From positions 74,384 to 138,383 of the IMG/VR virus record IMGVR_UViG_3300042309_002578: DNA of 64,000 nucleotides; one strand, 5' to 3'. This document shows, one piece after another, positions 17,687 through 53,374 of this stretch. The translations under genes and the position numbers were made by a program. Source of the stretch: a virus. Position 1 is the stretch's first letter. The number at the start of each line of letters is the position of its first letter. A model generated the notes under the pieces. That model was given only the letters and a program-made list of their open reading frames with translations, was not told where the DNA came from and ran no database searches.

Positions 17687-17824
17687 ACTGATTTAATAAA
17701 CCATTTTGCATTTTGATTCCGATAAAATGCAAAATGGTTAAAAATCGGTGTAATAAAATAATACAAAGCGCGATACCGACACCTATCAATAGACAACAAA
17801 ATTGCGATCGCAACAACAAAAAAT

Positions 17825-18085
17825 ATGCTAGTTAAAGACTTTTTAGAATTTGCCGAACAGGTTAGACAATCTAGTGAGAAAGACCAATCTGTGCTAGACC
17901 TAGAGCTAAATTTTTATGATGGAAGCGAGTCATGGGACATAGACAAATTAGAAATAACTATGCCTGACGCAGAAACAGAAGAACCAGGTTATGTTGTCTT
18001 TGAGTTAAAAACAAGTATTGACATAGAAGATGACCGGTTTGACAGAAGTCACCCAGAAATACGCCATGAAGTAGTAGCCCCATAA
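17825..18085 (+). CDS. Small acidic hypothetical protein
   Basis: 86-aa D/E-rich ORF. Confidence 0.65.
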   Translation: MLVKDFLEFAEQVRQSSEKDQSVLDLELNFYDGSESWDIDKLEITMPDAETEEPGYVVFELKTSIDIEDDRFDRSHPEIRHEVVAP

Positions 18086-18323
18086 GTGCAGCGAAACCTT
18101 TTAAGGACTAACAGCTACTGGAAGTTAGCCCTTAAAGAAAAAAGCATAATATTTAAGATTATGCAATTTTTTCTGTCAAATGGATTTTGTGAGCGAATCC
18201 CACGAAGCGGGTATTTTGCTTCTTGCTAAATTTCAAGAATTTAGACAGCTAACCCTAGCTCTATATTTATATTTCTTTCTTAGTTGTATTGCATATTTTT
18301 TCTTCTCGTGCTATAATTATATT

Positions 18324-18802
18324 AACGAGAGTAAATCCTTAGATCAAGCGTACTGCGTTTTGGTTTTAAACTGTTCTCGTTCGGGTCTTGTTCGCAAGGA
18401 GACAAGATATCCAGGGAAATTCCCCCGTTACTATACGTATGCGGTTTTAAAAAGCCTATACCTGGAAGGCAACTCGTACCTCGGATGCGAGACAACCTCA
18501 AAAAGCTGACAGGACGCGAGGCAGATGGTTACTGCCAAGATTGAAGAAACATAAGAACCTTCGCCTCATCGATCCTAACGGATTAAACATCAGATCCTTG
18601 AAGAAACTGGTGAGCCTATAGAGGTGCTATAGGCACGTTGGTGAAAACTAACAAGATTTTGAAGGGAGCTTGAGCCAGTAACTGTCCTGGATTAAAGTGC
18701 ATTACAAAAGCACACCAAGCTTCGGTCATGCTTTTTGGTTTTCAAGCAACAAAATTATGATCTAACCTTGGGTTTCCAACCGTGTGGACTAAATCACCGC
18801 AC
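18324..18802 (+). ncRNA. Candidate large structured non-coding RNA (unassigned class)
   Basis: Own promoter TTGCAT-17-TATAAT (18289-18317); many local hairpins (GCAA and GAAA tetraloops) and nested long-range helices; no credible ORF. Confidence 0.7.
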
Positions 18803-19214
18803 AAAAGCACACTAAGTATTAGACATAATTATTCTCATTGTTTTTTATTCCGCAAAAACCTAACGCCAAGTGTGTATGCGCTTATTTTAAGCGTTTATAT
18901 TATTTTGGTATTTAAAACTGCGATTTTGTCGTTGCTAGAATCTTTTTATCTTTTTCTGGACAAATAAAAATCGTTAGCTTTAGTTTATCGTCCTAAATTC
19001 TGTGAATTTAGGACAAATTGTCATGCTTATTTTTATTAAAGCCAGATATGCACAGGCGTAAATATAGGCGCATAGAATACATTTGTTCTGTGCTTCGCTG
19101 AAAACGGTGATTTTTGGCGGCAAAAAACTACAAGCGTGTTACATGATTTTTGGCAATGACAACGACTGAAATGCCTATTCTATCGTAAGGTTGGACACCA
19201 AATTTTCAAATTAC

Positions 19215-19310
19215 ATATAATACCATAAAGTGGGTACAAAAGTCAAGGGAAGATACAAAGAAAAAAGGGTAGTTTCCTGTAAGAAAGTGATCATCTTCCC
19301 AGCTTTATTT
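19215..19310. repeat. Third copy of the GGGAAGAT..ATCTTCCC operator/promoter core
   Basis: CAAAAGTCAAGGGAAGATACAAAGAAAAAAGGG..AAGAAAGTGATCATCTTCCC is nearly identical to 7266-7329. Confidence 0.85.
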
Positions 19311-19456
19311 TTCAGTGAAATTATAAATGTATTACAAGCACCCTCTTATTATGGCTATTGCAACGGAGGCGCATTTGTTGAAAGAAAGGAAAGATGGTGG
19401 GAAGGTGATAGTTTAGCGATCTAACAAAGAAATTGTGGAGATTTTATTCCGATAGC

Positions 19457-19501
19457 TTGGTAAGCGTAAAACTCAGTGGATAAAGCCACTGAGAGTGTCA
19501 A
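19457..19501 (+). mobile_element. Minimal IS200/IS605-type palindromic element (end remnant)
   Basis: TTGGTAAGCGTAAAACTCAGTGGATAAAGCCACTGAGAGTGTCAA: a hairpin ending in GAGTGTCAA, like the element end at 21657. Confidence 0.6.
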
Positions 19502-19717
19502 TTCCTCGTTCGCACCCTGATGCAAACAATAATGATCCGAACAACTTCAAAAGGTGCTAATTAGAGCTTTTGTGTAACCAAAGTGGCGATCGCCACATTA
19601 GCTAAAACCTAAAAGGATCAATACCGGGGTTGGAGTAGAGCAAGAAAGCTGCTTGAGCAGCACGGAAAAGACGCAGACAATTTTGCTTATGAATTCCAAA
19701 TAAGTGAAATAAAGCTA

Positions 19718-21082: not shown

Positions 21083-21656
21083 TTACTGGAAGTAGAAAAT
21101 TTCGTAACATTTCCTGTATTTTTTTTGAATTATATTTTTATCTGCGTTTCCGTCTATTCGCACAATTCTGTATGGGTTGAGTTTGTGCAATTCCATATAG
21201 CCATGCTGCACACGCCGATGAAATTCTATAGTTTCCTGCTCAATTCTGTCTGGTGCAGATTGCCCACGTTTACGCGAAAGTCCAACTTCTACATCTACAT
21301 CTAGCCAAATAGTTAAATCGCTTTCCAATCCGCCTGTAGCAATTTGATTTAGTTGATTTATTAAATTAAAGCTTAAACCTCTGCCGTAGCCTTGGTACGC
21401 AATTGTCGAGTCGGTGTAGCGATCGCATAAAATAAACTTATTTGCTGCTAAATTTGGTTTTAGTTTTTCTGCGATGTGTTGCGCTCTGTCTGCCGCATAC
21501 AGCAAGAGTTCTGTAATTTCGCCAATTGGATTGTTGTGAGACTTTTCTAGTAACAACTTCCGCAAATCTGTCCCCAATTCTGTTCCTCCTGGCTCACGAG
21601 TGAGTATTGGGGACATATTTAAACTTTCTAGCCATTGATAACACATCTGTATCTGT
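21083..21656 (-). pseudogene. tmk: Thymidylate (dTMP) kinase, 5'-truncated (P-loop missing)
   Basis: TREPGGT, LLYAADRAQH and DRYTDSTIAYQGYGRG are present; the N-terminal EGxxGxGKT is replaced by an IS end at 21657. Confidence 0.85.
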
Positions 21657-21954
21657 TTGACACTCTGCGCTCTAAAGAGACGCAGATTCTATAGAGGGTT
21701 TCAGTCTATGTCCCTCAGTTATCCCAGTTTCAGACATTGCCTTAATATTGGGTTCTTGCCCTGACTTCGTTTGCCCAAAGGGCGAAATCATATCTGACAA
21801 GCGTATACTTTCCGAGAGTCCCCCGGTAGGTTTTTATGTCTTGTACTGACAACTTAATTATAACACAATATTGAAGGCGAATCAATTCGCCCGTGTGCGT
21901 TTTCCCCTTCGGTCTGAAGACGCGAAGCTCCCAACGCTACCGCTTTCCTCTTGG
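21657..21954 (-). mobile_element. Non-autonomous IS200/IS605-family element (~300 bp, no transposase)
   Basis: Minus strand ends GAATCTGCGTCTCTTTAGAGCGCAGAGTGTCAA (right-end hairpin + TCAA) and begins CCAAGAGGAAAGCGGTAGCG; internal hairpins; abuts two truncated genes. Confidence 0.7.
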
Positions 21955-49779: not shown

Positions 49780-51258
49780 ATGTCTATCAGAGTTTTACCT
49801 TCGCGTCCAGGTGTATATATATCCGAACAAAGTGCTGGGACCCCGCCAATTAGTACGGCCTTATTTCAGCGCACATACCTTCTTGGAACTTCAACACAGG
49901 GGACTTTAGAGCCTTTTCAGTTAGGAAGTTACGATGATTTTATAAATTACTTTGGCAACAGTGAAACAGTTACCAAGAACACAATTAACACATATTTACA
50001 AAATACAAAGTTGGGGTTGTTTTTTGTAAAAGTTCCAGTTGCTTACACATCAGAAGTTACTCTTAGTGCCAAAACTACTGGCACAATATACAGCTTTAAG
50101 ATTGGAGACATTACATTTACAAGAACCGCGACTGAAACCGACACAATTGATAAAATAATTGACTATTTTATTGATGCCATAAACAATAGTTATGCCATCA
50201 ATAATGAAGTAATGGGGCATCATTTAAAAGATTCGCTTGGTGCTAACGATTATTCAGATAGTTCATTCATTGTCAGATCAATAAATGAACAAATATTTAC
50301 AATTACCGATCTGTCTGAGTATACGTCTCCATCTCTTCCCTCAACCACGAATATAAATTATTGGGATTATGTTGGGGCGACACAAAGAATTGCAAACTCG
50401 TATAAAAACGAAAGACAAGGCTTTCTGGTCTGCCCAGAAGCATTTTATAACATAGAAAGTTTACCCCAAAGAAATATAGTCGCTAATTCTATGGAGGTTG
50501 CAGCCCGTAATTTGGGTTGGATGGCGTTTATTGATGCTGGCTCTCCAGATATTGTGACTAGACCAAGCCAATTAACCGCAGAATTTGAAAACGTTACGTC
50601 TCCCACTGGGAATACCGCAGCGTACTATCCTTGGTTGATAGACCTAAATGACAACCACGTCAGTTTAGCCGCTATGACCGCTGGATATGCCTTGCAAAGA
50701 TTTGAGAAAGAGGGGATACAACACCCACCTGCCGGGAATTCATACCCGTTTGTAAATGTTTCTGGTGCGGCATTTAAGTTGTCAGACCCACAAAGAGATT
50801 TTATGGCAGATATTCGCGTTAATCCGTGTATATTTCGCAGAGGATTTGGTTACGTCCCCTATGATGTAAAAACACTTTCATTAAATACAGATTTTCGATT
50901 TATAAACCACCGCGTTATTTTTTCTTGCATTGAAAGAACAATTTTTGACACCATAGAAAACAGTAATACGCTACTTAGGGCTAATGGTGGTGCTGGAGCG
51001 TTTTATTTAACGCTCCGAAACATAATAATAGACATCCTTGACACTTTTTATAATGCTGGTGCATTATATGGATTAACAGCAAGAGATGCCTATAATTGCC
51101 GATGTGATGCGGGTATTCAAACTTCTGAAGCACTTGAAAGAGGTGTTGTGACTGCGTTAATTTACATAGTTCCAGCAAGCACGGTGAGACAAATAGATGC
51201 TGTTGCTTACCGTGTGAAAATTGGTGGTATTGCCCAGGCTATTTTACAAACTCTATAA
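49780..51258 (+). CDS. Tail sheath protein
   Basis: RPGVYISE, AYYPWL, HPPAG, VNP, RFINHR, YNAGALYG...AY..RCD. Confidence 0.93.
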   Translation: MSIRVLPSRPGVYISEQSAGTPPISTALFQRTYLLGTSTQGTLEPFQLGSYDDFINYFGNSETVTKNTINTYLQNTKLGLFFVKVPVAYTSEVTLSAKTTGTIYSFKIGDITFTRTATETDTIDKIIDYFIDAINNSYAINNEVMGHHLKDSLGANDYSDSSFIVRSINEQIFTITDLSEYTSPSLPSTTNINYWDYVGATQRIANSYKNERQGFLVCPEAFYNIESLPQRNIVANSMEVAARNLGWMAFIDAGSPDIVTRPSQLTAEFENVTSPTGNTAAYYPWLIDLNDNHVSLAAMTAGYALQRFEKEGIQHPPAGNSYPFVNVSGAAFKLSDPQRDFMADIRVNPCIFRRGFGYVPYDVKTLSLNTDFRFINHRVIFSCIERTIFDTIENSNTLLRANGGAGAFYLTLRNIIIDILDTFYNAGALYGLTARDAYNCRCDAGIQTSEALERGVVTALIYIVPASTVRQIDAVAYRVKIGGIAQAILQTL

Positions 51259-51272
51259 TTTCGGTAATTTTT

Positions 51273-51689
51273 ATGTCAATTCAAAATGAGTCAGATTTTA
51301 TTGTTCAAATAGGGGGACCATTCCTCCAGTTAGCAGTCACAGAAAAGAGCGGGGGGGAGGTGTCGAGGGAAACAGCAAAATATCCAGACGCACTAAAGGA
51401 CAAAAGCTATTTCACCACCGGAAGGCGAATGATTAGTGACTTGGTTTTGCGTTTACCATACGATGCCGCTGATCATGAAATTTTGATTGAGGAAATTGAA
51501 AGCAGCTGTCAAGATCCATTTTCGATTGTTGTTCAAGCGGTAAAAAACTGCCCAGACGTAGAAAATTATGGTCCACCAGTTGTTTACAAAGGCTGCATTC
51601 TTTCTAAAATTAAGCGCCCAGATGTTAAGCGTGGTAGTGGTAGCGGAGTGGCAATGCTTGAACTTGAGTTTGCTGTTGGAGATTTATAA
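51273..51689 (+). CDS. Tail tube protein
   Basis: 138 aa directly after the sheath; SGGE, YKGC.L...PDV..GS..VAMLELE. Confidence 0.85.
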   Translation: MSIQNESDFIVQIGGPFLQLAVTEKSGGEVSRETAKYPDALKDKSYFTTGRRMISDLVLRLPYDAADHEILIEEIESSCQDPFSIVVQAVKNCPDVENYGPPVVYKGCILSKIKRPDVKRGSGSGVAMLELEFAVGDL

Positions 51690-51698
51690 GTAAATCAA

Positions 51699-51764
51699 TG
51701 CGGTTAAAACCGCGCGTGTCGTTTCCCTCTCGGCACTAAAGTGACTGAGTTTCATACTTACCAG
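51699..51764 (-). mobile_element. IS200/IS605-type left-end remnant
   Basis: Minus strand TGGTAAGTATGAAACTCAGTCACTTTAGTGCCGAGAGGGAAACG..GCGGTTTTAACCGC, similar to 19457-19501. Confidence 0.55.
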
Positions 51765-51772
51765 GAGTTCTT

Positions 51773-53374
51773 GTGATATTTTCAAGTAAGCATCTTGAAG
51801 AAAAATTTAAAAACTTAGACACAGATGGTTTGACACCATTTGTGTCTGCTTTGGTTTTTGATATAGTAGATGAAAATTATGGGGGCGTAATTGAGAATTT
51901 AAATATAACCCATATAGAATTGCCAAATATTTCTGGATATTTTCACTCTCCAAGAGTAGGGAACAGGCGATTAAAAATAGATTTTTTAATCAATGGGAGC
52001 AACATAGTATTAACGCCACAAAACCTAGAAATAATTGACGACGATATAGAGAAAATATATCTTGCTGTAAGATCACTATCTTTTGGCAACATAAACAAAA
52101 CTAATTATCTTCCAATAGAATTCTTCAGTTTTGCTCAAAAGCAAATGAATTGCACAGTCGGGTGGTCTTGTAAGGGGCAAAATGGTTATGCTTGTCTGTC
52201 TAAATCAAAGAAAAATTGTAACAATGAGTTGAATCCAACTCACTCACAATATATGCAGTGGTTAGCAAAAAATGCTAGTGCCGAATCTGATTTATTTAAA
52301 GACTTAGAAAAAGCCGTAACTAAACCCGCAACTAAACCCGCAACTAAACCTGCAATTAAACCCACAACTAAACCTGCAACTAAACCTGCAACTAACCCCG
52401 CAACTAACCCCGCAACTAAACCTGCAACTAAATCTAAAGCAACAGTAAATTTACTTAGGAAAACAGGTAGAGGTGAGAAGTTGTTACAACCAGAAAATGA
52501 CGAAGATAAAAAATTGTTTAAGGATAATATAGACAAAGCAAGAAAAGAATTAAATTCTGAATTATCAGAAAATAAAGAAAAGTTAAAAAATAATCCAAAC
52601 AGCAAATATGCAACCAGGAAAATAAAAGAAATATCGGACAAACAAGATAGACTTGATGCCTACGAAAAGTCTGATAAAAACATCTCATTGCCGTCTGATT
52701 ACAGATTGTATAAAGTATCAGACATGGAATCAAAGGAGTATGAAGGTAGGCTTCTGTCTCAGCCAAACAGCAGGAGAGTGGTTGCGCTAAGTAGTGTTTC
52801 TGATGACTTACAGAAACAATACCCCAACATGACAAAAGCTGAATTAGCCTCTTTAAAAGTTTACACGCAAACAAGCTTTGATCACATGAACACGTATTTG
52901 CGAAATAACGAAGATTCTGAGGCTATTTATAAAATAGACATTATGAAATCTGCTGGAGAATATAGATCTAAGCATCAGCTAGAAAATGACACGATTGCCG
53001 ACATCAGGATGACGACATCCGCACTCAATAAATTGCCTGATTTTATTGGCACAGTTCTTCGAGGGACTAAAATGCCAAAAAATATGAGTAACTCAGATAT
53101 AGAAAATACGTACAAACCCGGTAGTATAATTACAGAAAAAAGTTTCACAAGTACATCTAGTTCCGGCGATCGCAAGTTTAGAGGAGAATTGCAGTATGTA
53201 ATTGAATCTAAAACAGGGAAAGATATATCAAATATTTCAGATAGTAGGCAAGAAAAAGAGGTTTTATTCAGACCAGGCACCAGTTTTAATGTGACTAGCT
53301 TTAAAAAATCTGATAGCGGGTATGAAATACACTTAAAAGAGGTTGACCCTGTAACTAAACCTGCAACCACCTGA
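51773..53374 (+). CDS. Effector A: shared leader + Cys4 motif + KPAT linker + VIP2/Alt-like ADP-ribosyltransferase
   Basis: VDENYGG leader; CTVGWSCKGQNGYACL..KKNC; ART YT...MN.YLR, VLRG, FTSTS, QEKEVLF (R-STS-ExE). Confidence 0.88.
   Translation: MIFSSKHLEEKFKNLDTDGLTPFVSALVFDIVDENYGGVIENLNITHIELPNISGYFHSPRVGNRRLKIDFLINGSNIVLTPQNLEIIDDDIEKIYLAVRSLSFGNINKTNYLPIEFFSFAQKQMNCTVGWSCKGQNGYACLSKSKKNCNNELNPTHSQYMQWLAKNASAESDLFKDLEKAVTKPATKPATKPAIKPTTKPATKPATNPATNPATKPATKSKATVNLLRKTGRGEKLLQPENDEDKKLFKDNIDKARKELNSELSENKEKLKNNPNSKYATRKIKEISDKQDRLDAYEKSDKNISLPSDYRLYKVSDMESKEYEGRLLSQPNSRRVVALSSVSDDLQKQYPNMTKAELASLKVYTQTSFDHMNTYLRNNEDSEAIYKIDIMKSAGEYRSKHQLENDTIADIRMTTSALNKLPDFIGTVLRGTKMPKNMSNSDIENTYKPGSIITEKSFTSTSSSGDRKFRGELQYVIESKTGKDISNISDSRQEKEVLFRPGTSFNVTSFKKSDSGYEIHLKEVDPVTKPATT

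Follow-up and report, generated by a model that had tools for sequence, protein, structure and literature searches.

The window analysed here is a 64-kb stretch (bases 74384-138383) of a 138-kb IMG/VR virus record with an estimated completeness of 83%, and all positions below refer to this window. The thymidylate kinase (tmk) of the phage, encoded at 21083-21646 on the minus strand, has 73-78% protein identity to its counterparts in Dolichospermum, Aphanizomenon, Cuspidothrix and Anabaena, based on 80 loci retained out of 194 confirmed ones. Because of this similarity the host is probably a bloom-forming freshwater member of the Nostocaceae of the Dolichospermum/Aphanizomenon/Anabaena type. 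There is no close cultured phage: the DnaE of the phage stays below 60% identity to each of the 1450 GenBank phage records that it matches, and its identity to IMG/VR contigs is 44% or lower.

The locus under study is found once in the phage genome and its features are collected in Table 1. It lies within a region, 18086-19717, in which no credible gene is found under genetic codes 11 or 4 or with TAG read as glutamine. Under the same codes no ORF of at least 70 amino acids is present at the locus itself, except for an implausible 109-aa frame at 18180-18509. As a protein family this frame was rejected, its sole real match covering the gene fragment at 18150-18245. Alternative genetic codes (code 4, TAG as glutamine, TAA as glutamine) opened no convincing gene, and the ORF at 18782-18967 was discarded as a gene, as it is without relatives and not on record as a gene call.

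Table 1. Features at and around the locus, in window coordinates.
Feature	Position	Strand	Description
Gene fragment, 32 codons	18150..18245	+	5' part missing; gene intact in related phages
Sigma-70-type promoter	18289..18317	+	TTGCAT -35, 17-nt spacer, TGcTATAAT extended -10; predicted start ~18324
5' domain of predicted RNA	18322..18636	+	Orphan; several local hairpins, e.g. 18614-18634
3' domain	18637..18750	+	Long irregular stem capped by three-way junction
Three-way-junction core	18669..18722	+	Homologous to module 3' of HEARO core in host mini-transposons
Terminator-like hairpin	18878..18894	+	7 pairs, 3 G-C, then T-rich run; scan-listed

Both promoter elements described in the initial annotation can be read directly in the sequence, the -35 box at 18289-18294 and the extended -10 box at 18309-18317. 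The site is not in the list given by a promoter scan of the window, since its -35 box matches TTGACA at just three of six positions. The extended -10 motif TGNTATAAT has eight copies in the window, against 4.5 +/- 2.0 expected (eight or more copies in 8 of 100 shuffles), and is plausibly in use by the phage, because the majority of these copies are directly upstream of ORFs. The terminator scan lists no site near 18737; its hairpin at 18878-18894 is a possible 3' end, with which the RNA would be about 580 nt long. The GC content is 0.43-0.455 within 18300-18800 and 0.295-0.37 in the flanks, in agreement with the GC enrichment reported before. The initial description of an ORF-free, promoter-driven and probably transcribed locus is supported.

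The locus had further been described as a highly structured non-coding RNA with dense complementarity, and the sequence motifs listed for it are all present, in place or one to two bases off. Compared with shuffled sequences the plus strand of 18320-18802 folds well, with a z-score of -3.14 and 0 of 100 shuffles as good, and better than the minus strand (z -0.83). Compared with its own genome, however, it does not stand out: 24 evenly spaced 483-nt windows have a mean z of -1.62 (sd 2.0) and five of them reach z <= -3, in a run in which the locus itself scored -2.37. In 240-nt windows the locus varies between -0.8 and -3.3, and neighbouring coding windows reach -4.0 and -3.95. As the windows of this genome fold well everywhere, the folding of the locus is not exceptional; the dense complementarity exists but is not above this genome's background. 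ORF-free, GC-richer and helix-rich phage regions of this kind need a genome-specific background before they are labelled as ornate RNAs.

The predicted long-range helices shift with the chosen ends of the folded sequence, and only 18637-18750 and a few hairpins are stable. Two of the proposed long-range pairs, CAGGAC/GTCCTG and GGTTACTG/CAGTAACT, are within chance: their duplex energy is equalled in 122 of 1000 shuffles, and they compete with hairpin 1 of the junction described below, which is local by homology and which they would replace. The 5' domain has a z-score of -2.33, with 1 of 100 shuffles as good. For the 114-nt 3' domain the minimum free energy and centroid structures are identical, the z-score is -3.38 (1 of 200 shuffles as good) and the helix probabilities are 0.9-1.0, both when 18318-18802 and when 18318-18900 is folded.

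GOLLD and ROOL are large ornate RNAs that are often found in phages, and membership in such a class had been proposed for the locus. Neither of them, nor any other Rfam 15 family, matches it: there are no gathering-level matches in the whole 64-kb window, at E <= 10 no match in 17800-19400 overlaps the locus, and the sole match in 18300-18760 at this threshold is a 12.3-bit archaeal snoRNA, which is noise. The absence of tRNA and tmRNA, also noted initially, agrees with ARAGORN, which finds none.

Searches for relatives of the locus gave host homologues of the junction core and no full-length homologue, in collections that leave out near relatives of the phage. There was no blastn match in 50,697 phage records, and two stretches of the window, searched as exact patterns in IMG/VR and GTDB genomes, gave 0 matches. 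The locus is absent from 34 loci of DnaE relatives (identity <= 44%) by BLAST, nhmmer and the covariance model R1 described below. Searching via a flanking 198-aa protein yielded no confirmed IMG/VR locus and nothing among GenBank phages, only one 1.1-kb metagenome contig and a distant locus, L202, which is tightly packed with coding sequence and lacks the RNA. Closer relatives of the upstream protein exist at 66-87% (P0002-P0005). In 389 Nostocaceae genomes no full-length match was found. For the 5' domain (18300-18660), a search of 401 genomes of the order in which two candidates were scored for each genome gave nothing beyond chance, with 32 genomes giving a match at E <= 0.05 and a best E of 0.002. 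Two candidate matches were rejected: one of 18323-18376 in two host genomes, which lies inside a host ORF and is attributed to chance, and a recurring 25-nt match of 18525-18549, which lies in a conserved host gene and does not extend.

The picture is different for the 3' domain. When 18280-18900 was searched by BLAST in five genomes of Dolichospermum, Aphanizomenon, Cuspidothrix and Anabaena, there were multi-copy matches, all of them to 18670-18716. Family-wide, a match at E <= 0.01 was obtained in 42 of the 389 Nostocaceae genomes. Among the 57 places listed, 48 correspond to 18664-18722, where identity is as high as 93% over 40 nt; the remaining nine are scattered (E 0.001-0.008).

At the host loci the shared piece is positioned about 60 nt 3' of, and on the same strand as, the HEARO RNA (Rfam: RF02033), the omega RNA of IscB, which is matched with, for example, 141.8 and 126.8 bits. 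The five host genomes have 16, 28, 1, 17 and 9 HEARO matches at E <= 0.001. Most of the host copies are gene-less elements of about 446 nt, composed of the HEARO core, the shared module and a hairpin-rich 3' end that finishes with ...TTTCCCACTTACCG..TCTT and is followed by ATGA and unrelated DNA. This ATGA is often the start codon of the next gene. According to Kapitonov et al. 2016 (PMC4810608), cyanobacterial ISC elements start with GTCA and insert upstream of ATGA, a description that the host mini-elements fit. In full-length host elements iscB follows directly after HEARO (438 aa in L132 and 424 aa in L144); these elements have the 3' end and lack the module. Among 29 loci fetched across the family, 28 match a profile HMM of the mini-element and 25 include the HEARO part, while in L182 a diverged HEARO can be seen by eye and in L162 none is recognisable.

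We aligned 41 distinct host copies out of 43 (alignment A2), with L177 and L184 excluded before counting for their long insertions. The consensus comprises 28 pairs, which form a closing stem, three stem segments and a three-way junction with two hairpins. In the closing stem CAUUAUGCG pairs with GGCGGUAAUG, so that the region of the former iscB start is base-paired. The hairpin loops are GUAAYUGUC, which is nearly invariant, and AUYACAAAA, which is largely so. In the alignment 97.4% of the cells are paired, compared with 38-53% when the partners are slid by one to three columns, and 16 of the 28 pairs have compensatory changes, compared with 0-6 when slid. On four of five measures the observed value was reached by 0 of 500 shuffles, and on the count of further pair types by 2 of 500. 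Several G-U pairs are fixed, one of them in 41 of 41 sequences, which makes the structure strand-specific. The host module is thus a real strand-specific structure, either an RNA or a top-strand feature in the HEARO direction. In the preprint of Meers et al. 2023 (doi 10.1101/2023.03.14.532601), RF02033 is described as missing structural elements located downstream, and the position of the host module is where, by that description, these elements lie.

The covariance model R1, built from the 41 host copies only, was run over the whole window with filters off and gave a single strong match, 18669-18722 on the plus strand, with 41.5 bits and an E-value of 1.2e-7, the R1 E-values being rough because the calibration was shortened. 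The match covers model positions 67-119 of 147 with zero non-canonical pairs; the next best match has 19 bits and lies in AT-rich DNA. With nhmmer the junction core has an E-value of 3.6e-4 against the whole phage genome. In the phage, the inner stem CUUG/CAAG leads into hairpin 1, CCAG-UAACUGUC-CUGG, and hairpin 2, GUGC-AUUACAAAA-GCAC, and the module is oriented in the direction of the promoter. By sequence and pairing, 18669-18722 is a clear homologue of the structured module of the host HEARO/IscB mini-transposons. A clear match to a known mobile-element RNA had been named at the outset as evidence against the initial interpretation; it is present in part, at the junction core, and the 5' ~315 nt are without such a match.

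Outside the core the phage sequence is unrelated to that of the host. The stem nevertheless continues for about 24 more pairs, between 18637-18668 and 18723-18750. Complementarity as good as that of these flanks is found in 226 of 5000 shuffles and in 95 of 5000 pairs taken with the same geometry from the genome, so the closing stem outside the core is modestly better than chance (p ~0.02-0.045). When the 446-position host element was compared by nhmmer with 18250-18950 alone at E <= 100, only element positions 240-334 aligned, and neither the HEARO part nor the transposon 3' end was found. The phage locus likewise has no 3' subterminal hairpins and no ...TTTCCCACTTACCG..TCTT end abutting ATGA. 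Two further candidates were dropped: a pseudoknot between the loop of hairpin 1 and upstream sequence, which is within chance in the phage and by eye on A2 has no covariation in the hosts, and an echo of the element 3' end that a MAFFT alignment showed in 18722-18840, for which nhmmer gave no support.

These results bear on the proposal that the locus encodes a large structured phage RNA of a new class that has a function of its own, in which the junction would be a reusable RNA building block. We regard this as improbable. The RNA would have its own promoter and possibly its own terminator, its plus strand folds better than the minus strand, its sequence is present in RNA sequencing runs (see below), no Rfam family matches it, and one host locus, L162, has the module with no recognisable HEARO next to it. 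Yet HEARO accompanies the module at 25 of 29 host loci, the fold z-score is ordinary for the genome and two of the proposed long-range helices are within chance. Moreover, for about 85% of the RNA no homologues were found and therefore no covariation. As the sole recognisable part is the module of a host mini-transposon, the locus is better read as a mobile-element derivative than as a new giant RNA class.

Another way to explain the locus would be a functioning omega RNA that has diverged very far, has a 5' guide and recruits the IscB nuclease of the host in trans. The hosts would offer such a partner, as they carry full-length IscB elements (L132 and L144) and 1-28 HEARO matches each, gene-less elements with in-trans omega RNAs are described by Meers et al. 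2023 (doi 10.1101/2023.03.14.532601), and complete HEARO mini-elements are present in three IMG/VR contigs. The searches of the phage make this explanation very improbable. At E <= 10 RF02033 has no match in the whole phage genome. For 18300-18760 none is reported either, although matches down to some 12 bits would have appeared, which is below even the liberal floor of 15 bits that Meers et al. 2023 used for this family (the gathering score is 83 bits). The same model scores host copies with 40-160 bits. Furthermore, the HMM of the host element aligns no HEARO part at the locus. No RRXRR/IscB gene is matched at E <= 1 in the record, which is 83% complete, and the record contains no TnpB (best 12.6 bits).

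The surroundings of the locus are a patchwork. The gene fragment in Table 1 shares 32 of 33 residues with residues 29-60 of P0016, a 65-aa protein found on nine contigs elsewhere; P0016 and P0017 represent the intact small gene. A TAA at 18147-18149 precedes the fragment, in-frame stops lie upstream and the similarity ends at 18245. The cassette starts 43 nt after a rearrangement point, counted from the fragment end to the -35 box. Elsewhere the phage genome contains further fragments of the mini-element 3' end, at least six in number, four strong (E 1e-19 to 1e-11) and two weak, and one of them follows a truncated Y1 transposase. Because of these fragments and the complete mini-elements in three IMG/VR contigs, traffic of mini-elements into cyanophages is regarded as common.

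Such traffic would also be the source of a dead relic, that is, a mini-transposon which landed in the phage and was eroded by deletion or recombination, with the junction surviving by chance and any RNA being functionless. We consider this somewhat unlikely, and similarly so that the promoter is fortuitous or serves downstream genes, as the relic explanation would have it. The gene fragment 43 nt upstream of the -35 box, the six solo fragments (four strong, two weak) from this element family together with the truncated transposase, the fold that is not above genome background, and the single-copy locus with a 5' domain that has no homologue in the genomes searched would all be expected of a relic. 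Less expected are the retention of all junction pairs, the extension of the closing stem by about 24 pairs into non-homologous sequence, and a perfect extended -10 box in the correct orientation. In addition, slow decay at a core divergence of about 12-20% should have left detectable flanks, and nhmmer detected none.

To look for the locus in other samples we used the 31-mers of 18280-18810. At least 76% of the sampled 31-mers are present in 20 runs from 15 studies, which come from lake, freshwater and estuary samples and one sample labelled as soil. Six of these runs, from five studies, are metatranscriptomes and contain 0.76-0.92 of the sampled 31-mers, measured as k-mer presence in assembled RNA runs, which read-through or DNA carry-over would also give. 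We consider it probable that the locus is transcribed. That it is under selection as an RNA is a more tentative proposition, and we lean somewhat against it.

Taking the evidence together, the explanation we prefer, with moderate confidence, is a promoter-driven, gene-less cassette that is partly derived from the IscB/HEARO mini-transposons of the host and is possibly vestigial. Rightward transcription from about 18324 would produce a non-coding RNA of roughly 420-580 nt, made up of an orphan 5' domain (~315 nt) and the 3' domain 18637-18750 with its long stem and three-way-junction cap. The junction core would be shared by descent with the conserved module of the host mini-transposons, which sits just 3' of the HEARO core and replaces the deleted iscB gene. 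By virtue of this shared descent the phage RNA would be a chimeric derivative of a mobile-element RNA. As it has no HEARO core and no transposon ends, and the record no nuclease partner, it would not belong to the GOLLD/ROOL type, nor would it work as an omega RNA. Here as in the host elements, the module would act as a self-contained 3' structure, as a stabiliser or a factor-binding site, and the phage copy of it may be vestigial. What counts against the derived cassette is that only about 54 nt (at most ~90) of the ~480-nt locus are homologous to anything, that its fold is ordinary for this genome, that the 5' domain gave no homologue in the genomes searched, and that the closing stem beyond the core exceeds chance only modestly. 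A more specific version, in which the phage expresses the chimeric RNA during infection to engage a host factor that recognises the junction, for example as a decoy or hijacker of the OMEGA/transposon machinery of the host, seems to us quite improbable.

If the locus is functional, a phage of a bloom-forming cyanobacterium would have domesticated a piece of a transposon guide RNA, and this would point to a role for the uncharacterised extension of the omega RNA, the junction found in place of iscB in hundreds of mini-elements of the hosts. Should the decoy or hijacker interpretation be true, phage and host would interact at the RNA level in a way that is new. As a relic, the locus would document how heavily IscB/IS200-605 mini-elements are exchanged between the Nostocaceae and their phages.

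By the defining features of each, the locus is not a HEARO RNA, a complete mini-transposon, a PATE or a GOLLD/ROOL RNA, but it resembles several of them in part. Like GOLLD and ROOL it is phage-borne, ORF-free, several hundred nucleotides long and rich in predicted helices. Unlike them it has no Rfam 15 match and no homologue family or covariation, and its fold stability is ordinary for the genome. PATEs are palindrome-associated, protein-less derivatives of IS200/IS605 elements, which often encode in-trans omega RNAs, as described by Meers et al. 2023 (doi 10.1101/2023.03.14.532601). On that description, a PATE is, like the locus, a short non-coding cassette whose cargo is a structured RNA related to a transposon guide RNA, whereas the locus has no recognisable ends, no copies elsewhere and no detectable guide-RNA scaffold.

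The closest known systems are the gene-less IscB (ISC-type) mini-transposons with HEARO in the Nostocaceae, which are related to ISC1-1_MA of Microcystis, an element with a GTCA start and insertion upstream of ATGA (Kapitonov et al. 2016, PMC4810608). In contrast to these mini-transposons, the locus lacks a HEARO core, a GTCA start on the 5' side and a ...TCTT/ATGA 3' end (the slash marking the element boundary); it is single-copy, its 5' 315 nt and closing stem are unrelated to theirs, and it is equipped with its own strong promoter. Neither the locus nor the mini-transposons code for protein, and elements of this type do find their way into cyanophages. A long irregular stem, preceded by two short hairpins, carries the junction as its cap in the locus and the mini-transposons alike. 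The locus has the junction module that characterises the mini-transposons, with its GUAAYUGUC/AUYACAAAA loops, at 41.5 bits in 18669-18722, and the 54-nt core of this junction is common to both in sequence, in structure and in its orientation to transcription.

Four well-kept 3' ends of host IscB/HEARO mini-transposons, each 60-90 nt in length and matched with E values from 1e-19 to 1e-11, were found in the phage genome (see the table; coordinates on C1 count along the full phage record). All four are intergenic, and three of them stop at or beside the ATGA or GTGA that starts the next ORF. In one copy some 29 nt from the 5' end of HEARO also survive, so that this copy is a micro-element of roughly 95 nt (C1 25748-25842). 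This micro-element adjoins the most stable fold among 24 sampled windows of 483 nt (C1 25801-26283, z -8.2), which lies outside the window. Another of the 3' ends follows directly after a truncated IS200/IS605 transposase, whose remaining frame matches positions 71-120 of the 121 in the Pfam Y1_Tnp model with 43.5 bits.

Besides these 3' ends, the genome carries two near-identical copies of a non-coding repeat about 230 nt long. Over its final ~80 nt this repeat has weak similarity to the 3' end of the mini-elements, with E values of 5e-4 and 8e-4, and it has no match to the Rfam HEARO family. The non-coding DNA content of the genome is unusually large for a phage, with 28 gaps of at least 350 nt lacking any ORF of at least 80 aa over the whole genome. 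Several of these ORF-free gaps are GC-richer than average, such as C1 41883-43250, 49249-50927 and 53442-54335. At 18881-19120 of the window, each strand has a strong local fold (z -4.6 and -3.7); the region contains a perfect 11-bp hairpin, GTCCTAAATTC-TGT-GAATTTAGGAC, near 18990-19014.

Location of the features in the phage genome and in one host locus
Feature	Location	Strand	Remark
Mini-transposon 3' end	window 51692-51776	+	
Mini-transposon 3' end	C1 21119-21202	-	outside window
Mini-transposon 3' end	C1 25748-25808	-	outside window
Mini-transposon 3' end	C1 70220-70311	+	outside window
Truncated IS200/IS605 Y1 transposase	C1 70067-70207		outside window, ~4.2 kb left; 64-aa frame
Repeat of roughly 230 nt, copy 1	window 21707-21953	+	
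Repeat of roughly 230 nt, copy 2	C1 about 51250-51490		
Near-consensus promoter	window 19192-19221		TGGACA-18-TATAAT
Pseudogene fragment of 65-aa protein (P0016/P0017)	window 18150-18245	+	
364-aa ORF	L120 1915-3009	-	host Anabaena genome; weak IS110-family matches

Beside the non-coding cassette lies a pseudogene fragment of the gene for the database proteins P0016 and P0017, which is intact on other contigs; in the phage, other sequence stands in place of the 28 N-terminal codons and the final 5. P0015, a public gene call from a near-identical strain, spans window positions 18180-18554, has a single residue that departs from the window (C to T at 18493) and a W for the TGA at 18507-18509. 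This gene call is an artefact of code-4 gene calling on non-coding DNA.

In the host locus L120, a HEARO mini-element is located just downstream of a 364-aa ORF on the same strand, which matches Transposase_20 with 24.3 bits and DEDD_Tnp_IS110 with 17.4 bits. Across the host loci L118-L184 from Nostocaceae genomes, the module of roughly 100 nt positioned 3' of HEARO in the mini-elements shows strong covariation; L132 and L144, the two iscB elements of full length that were examined, both lack it. Possibly the module extends the omega RNA in a way that has been described little or not at all, standing in for the nuclease gene.
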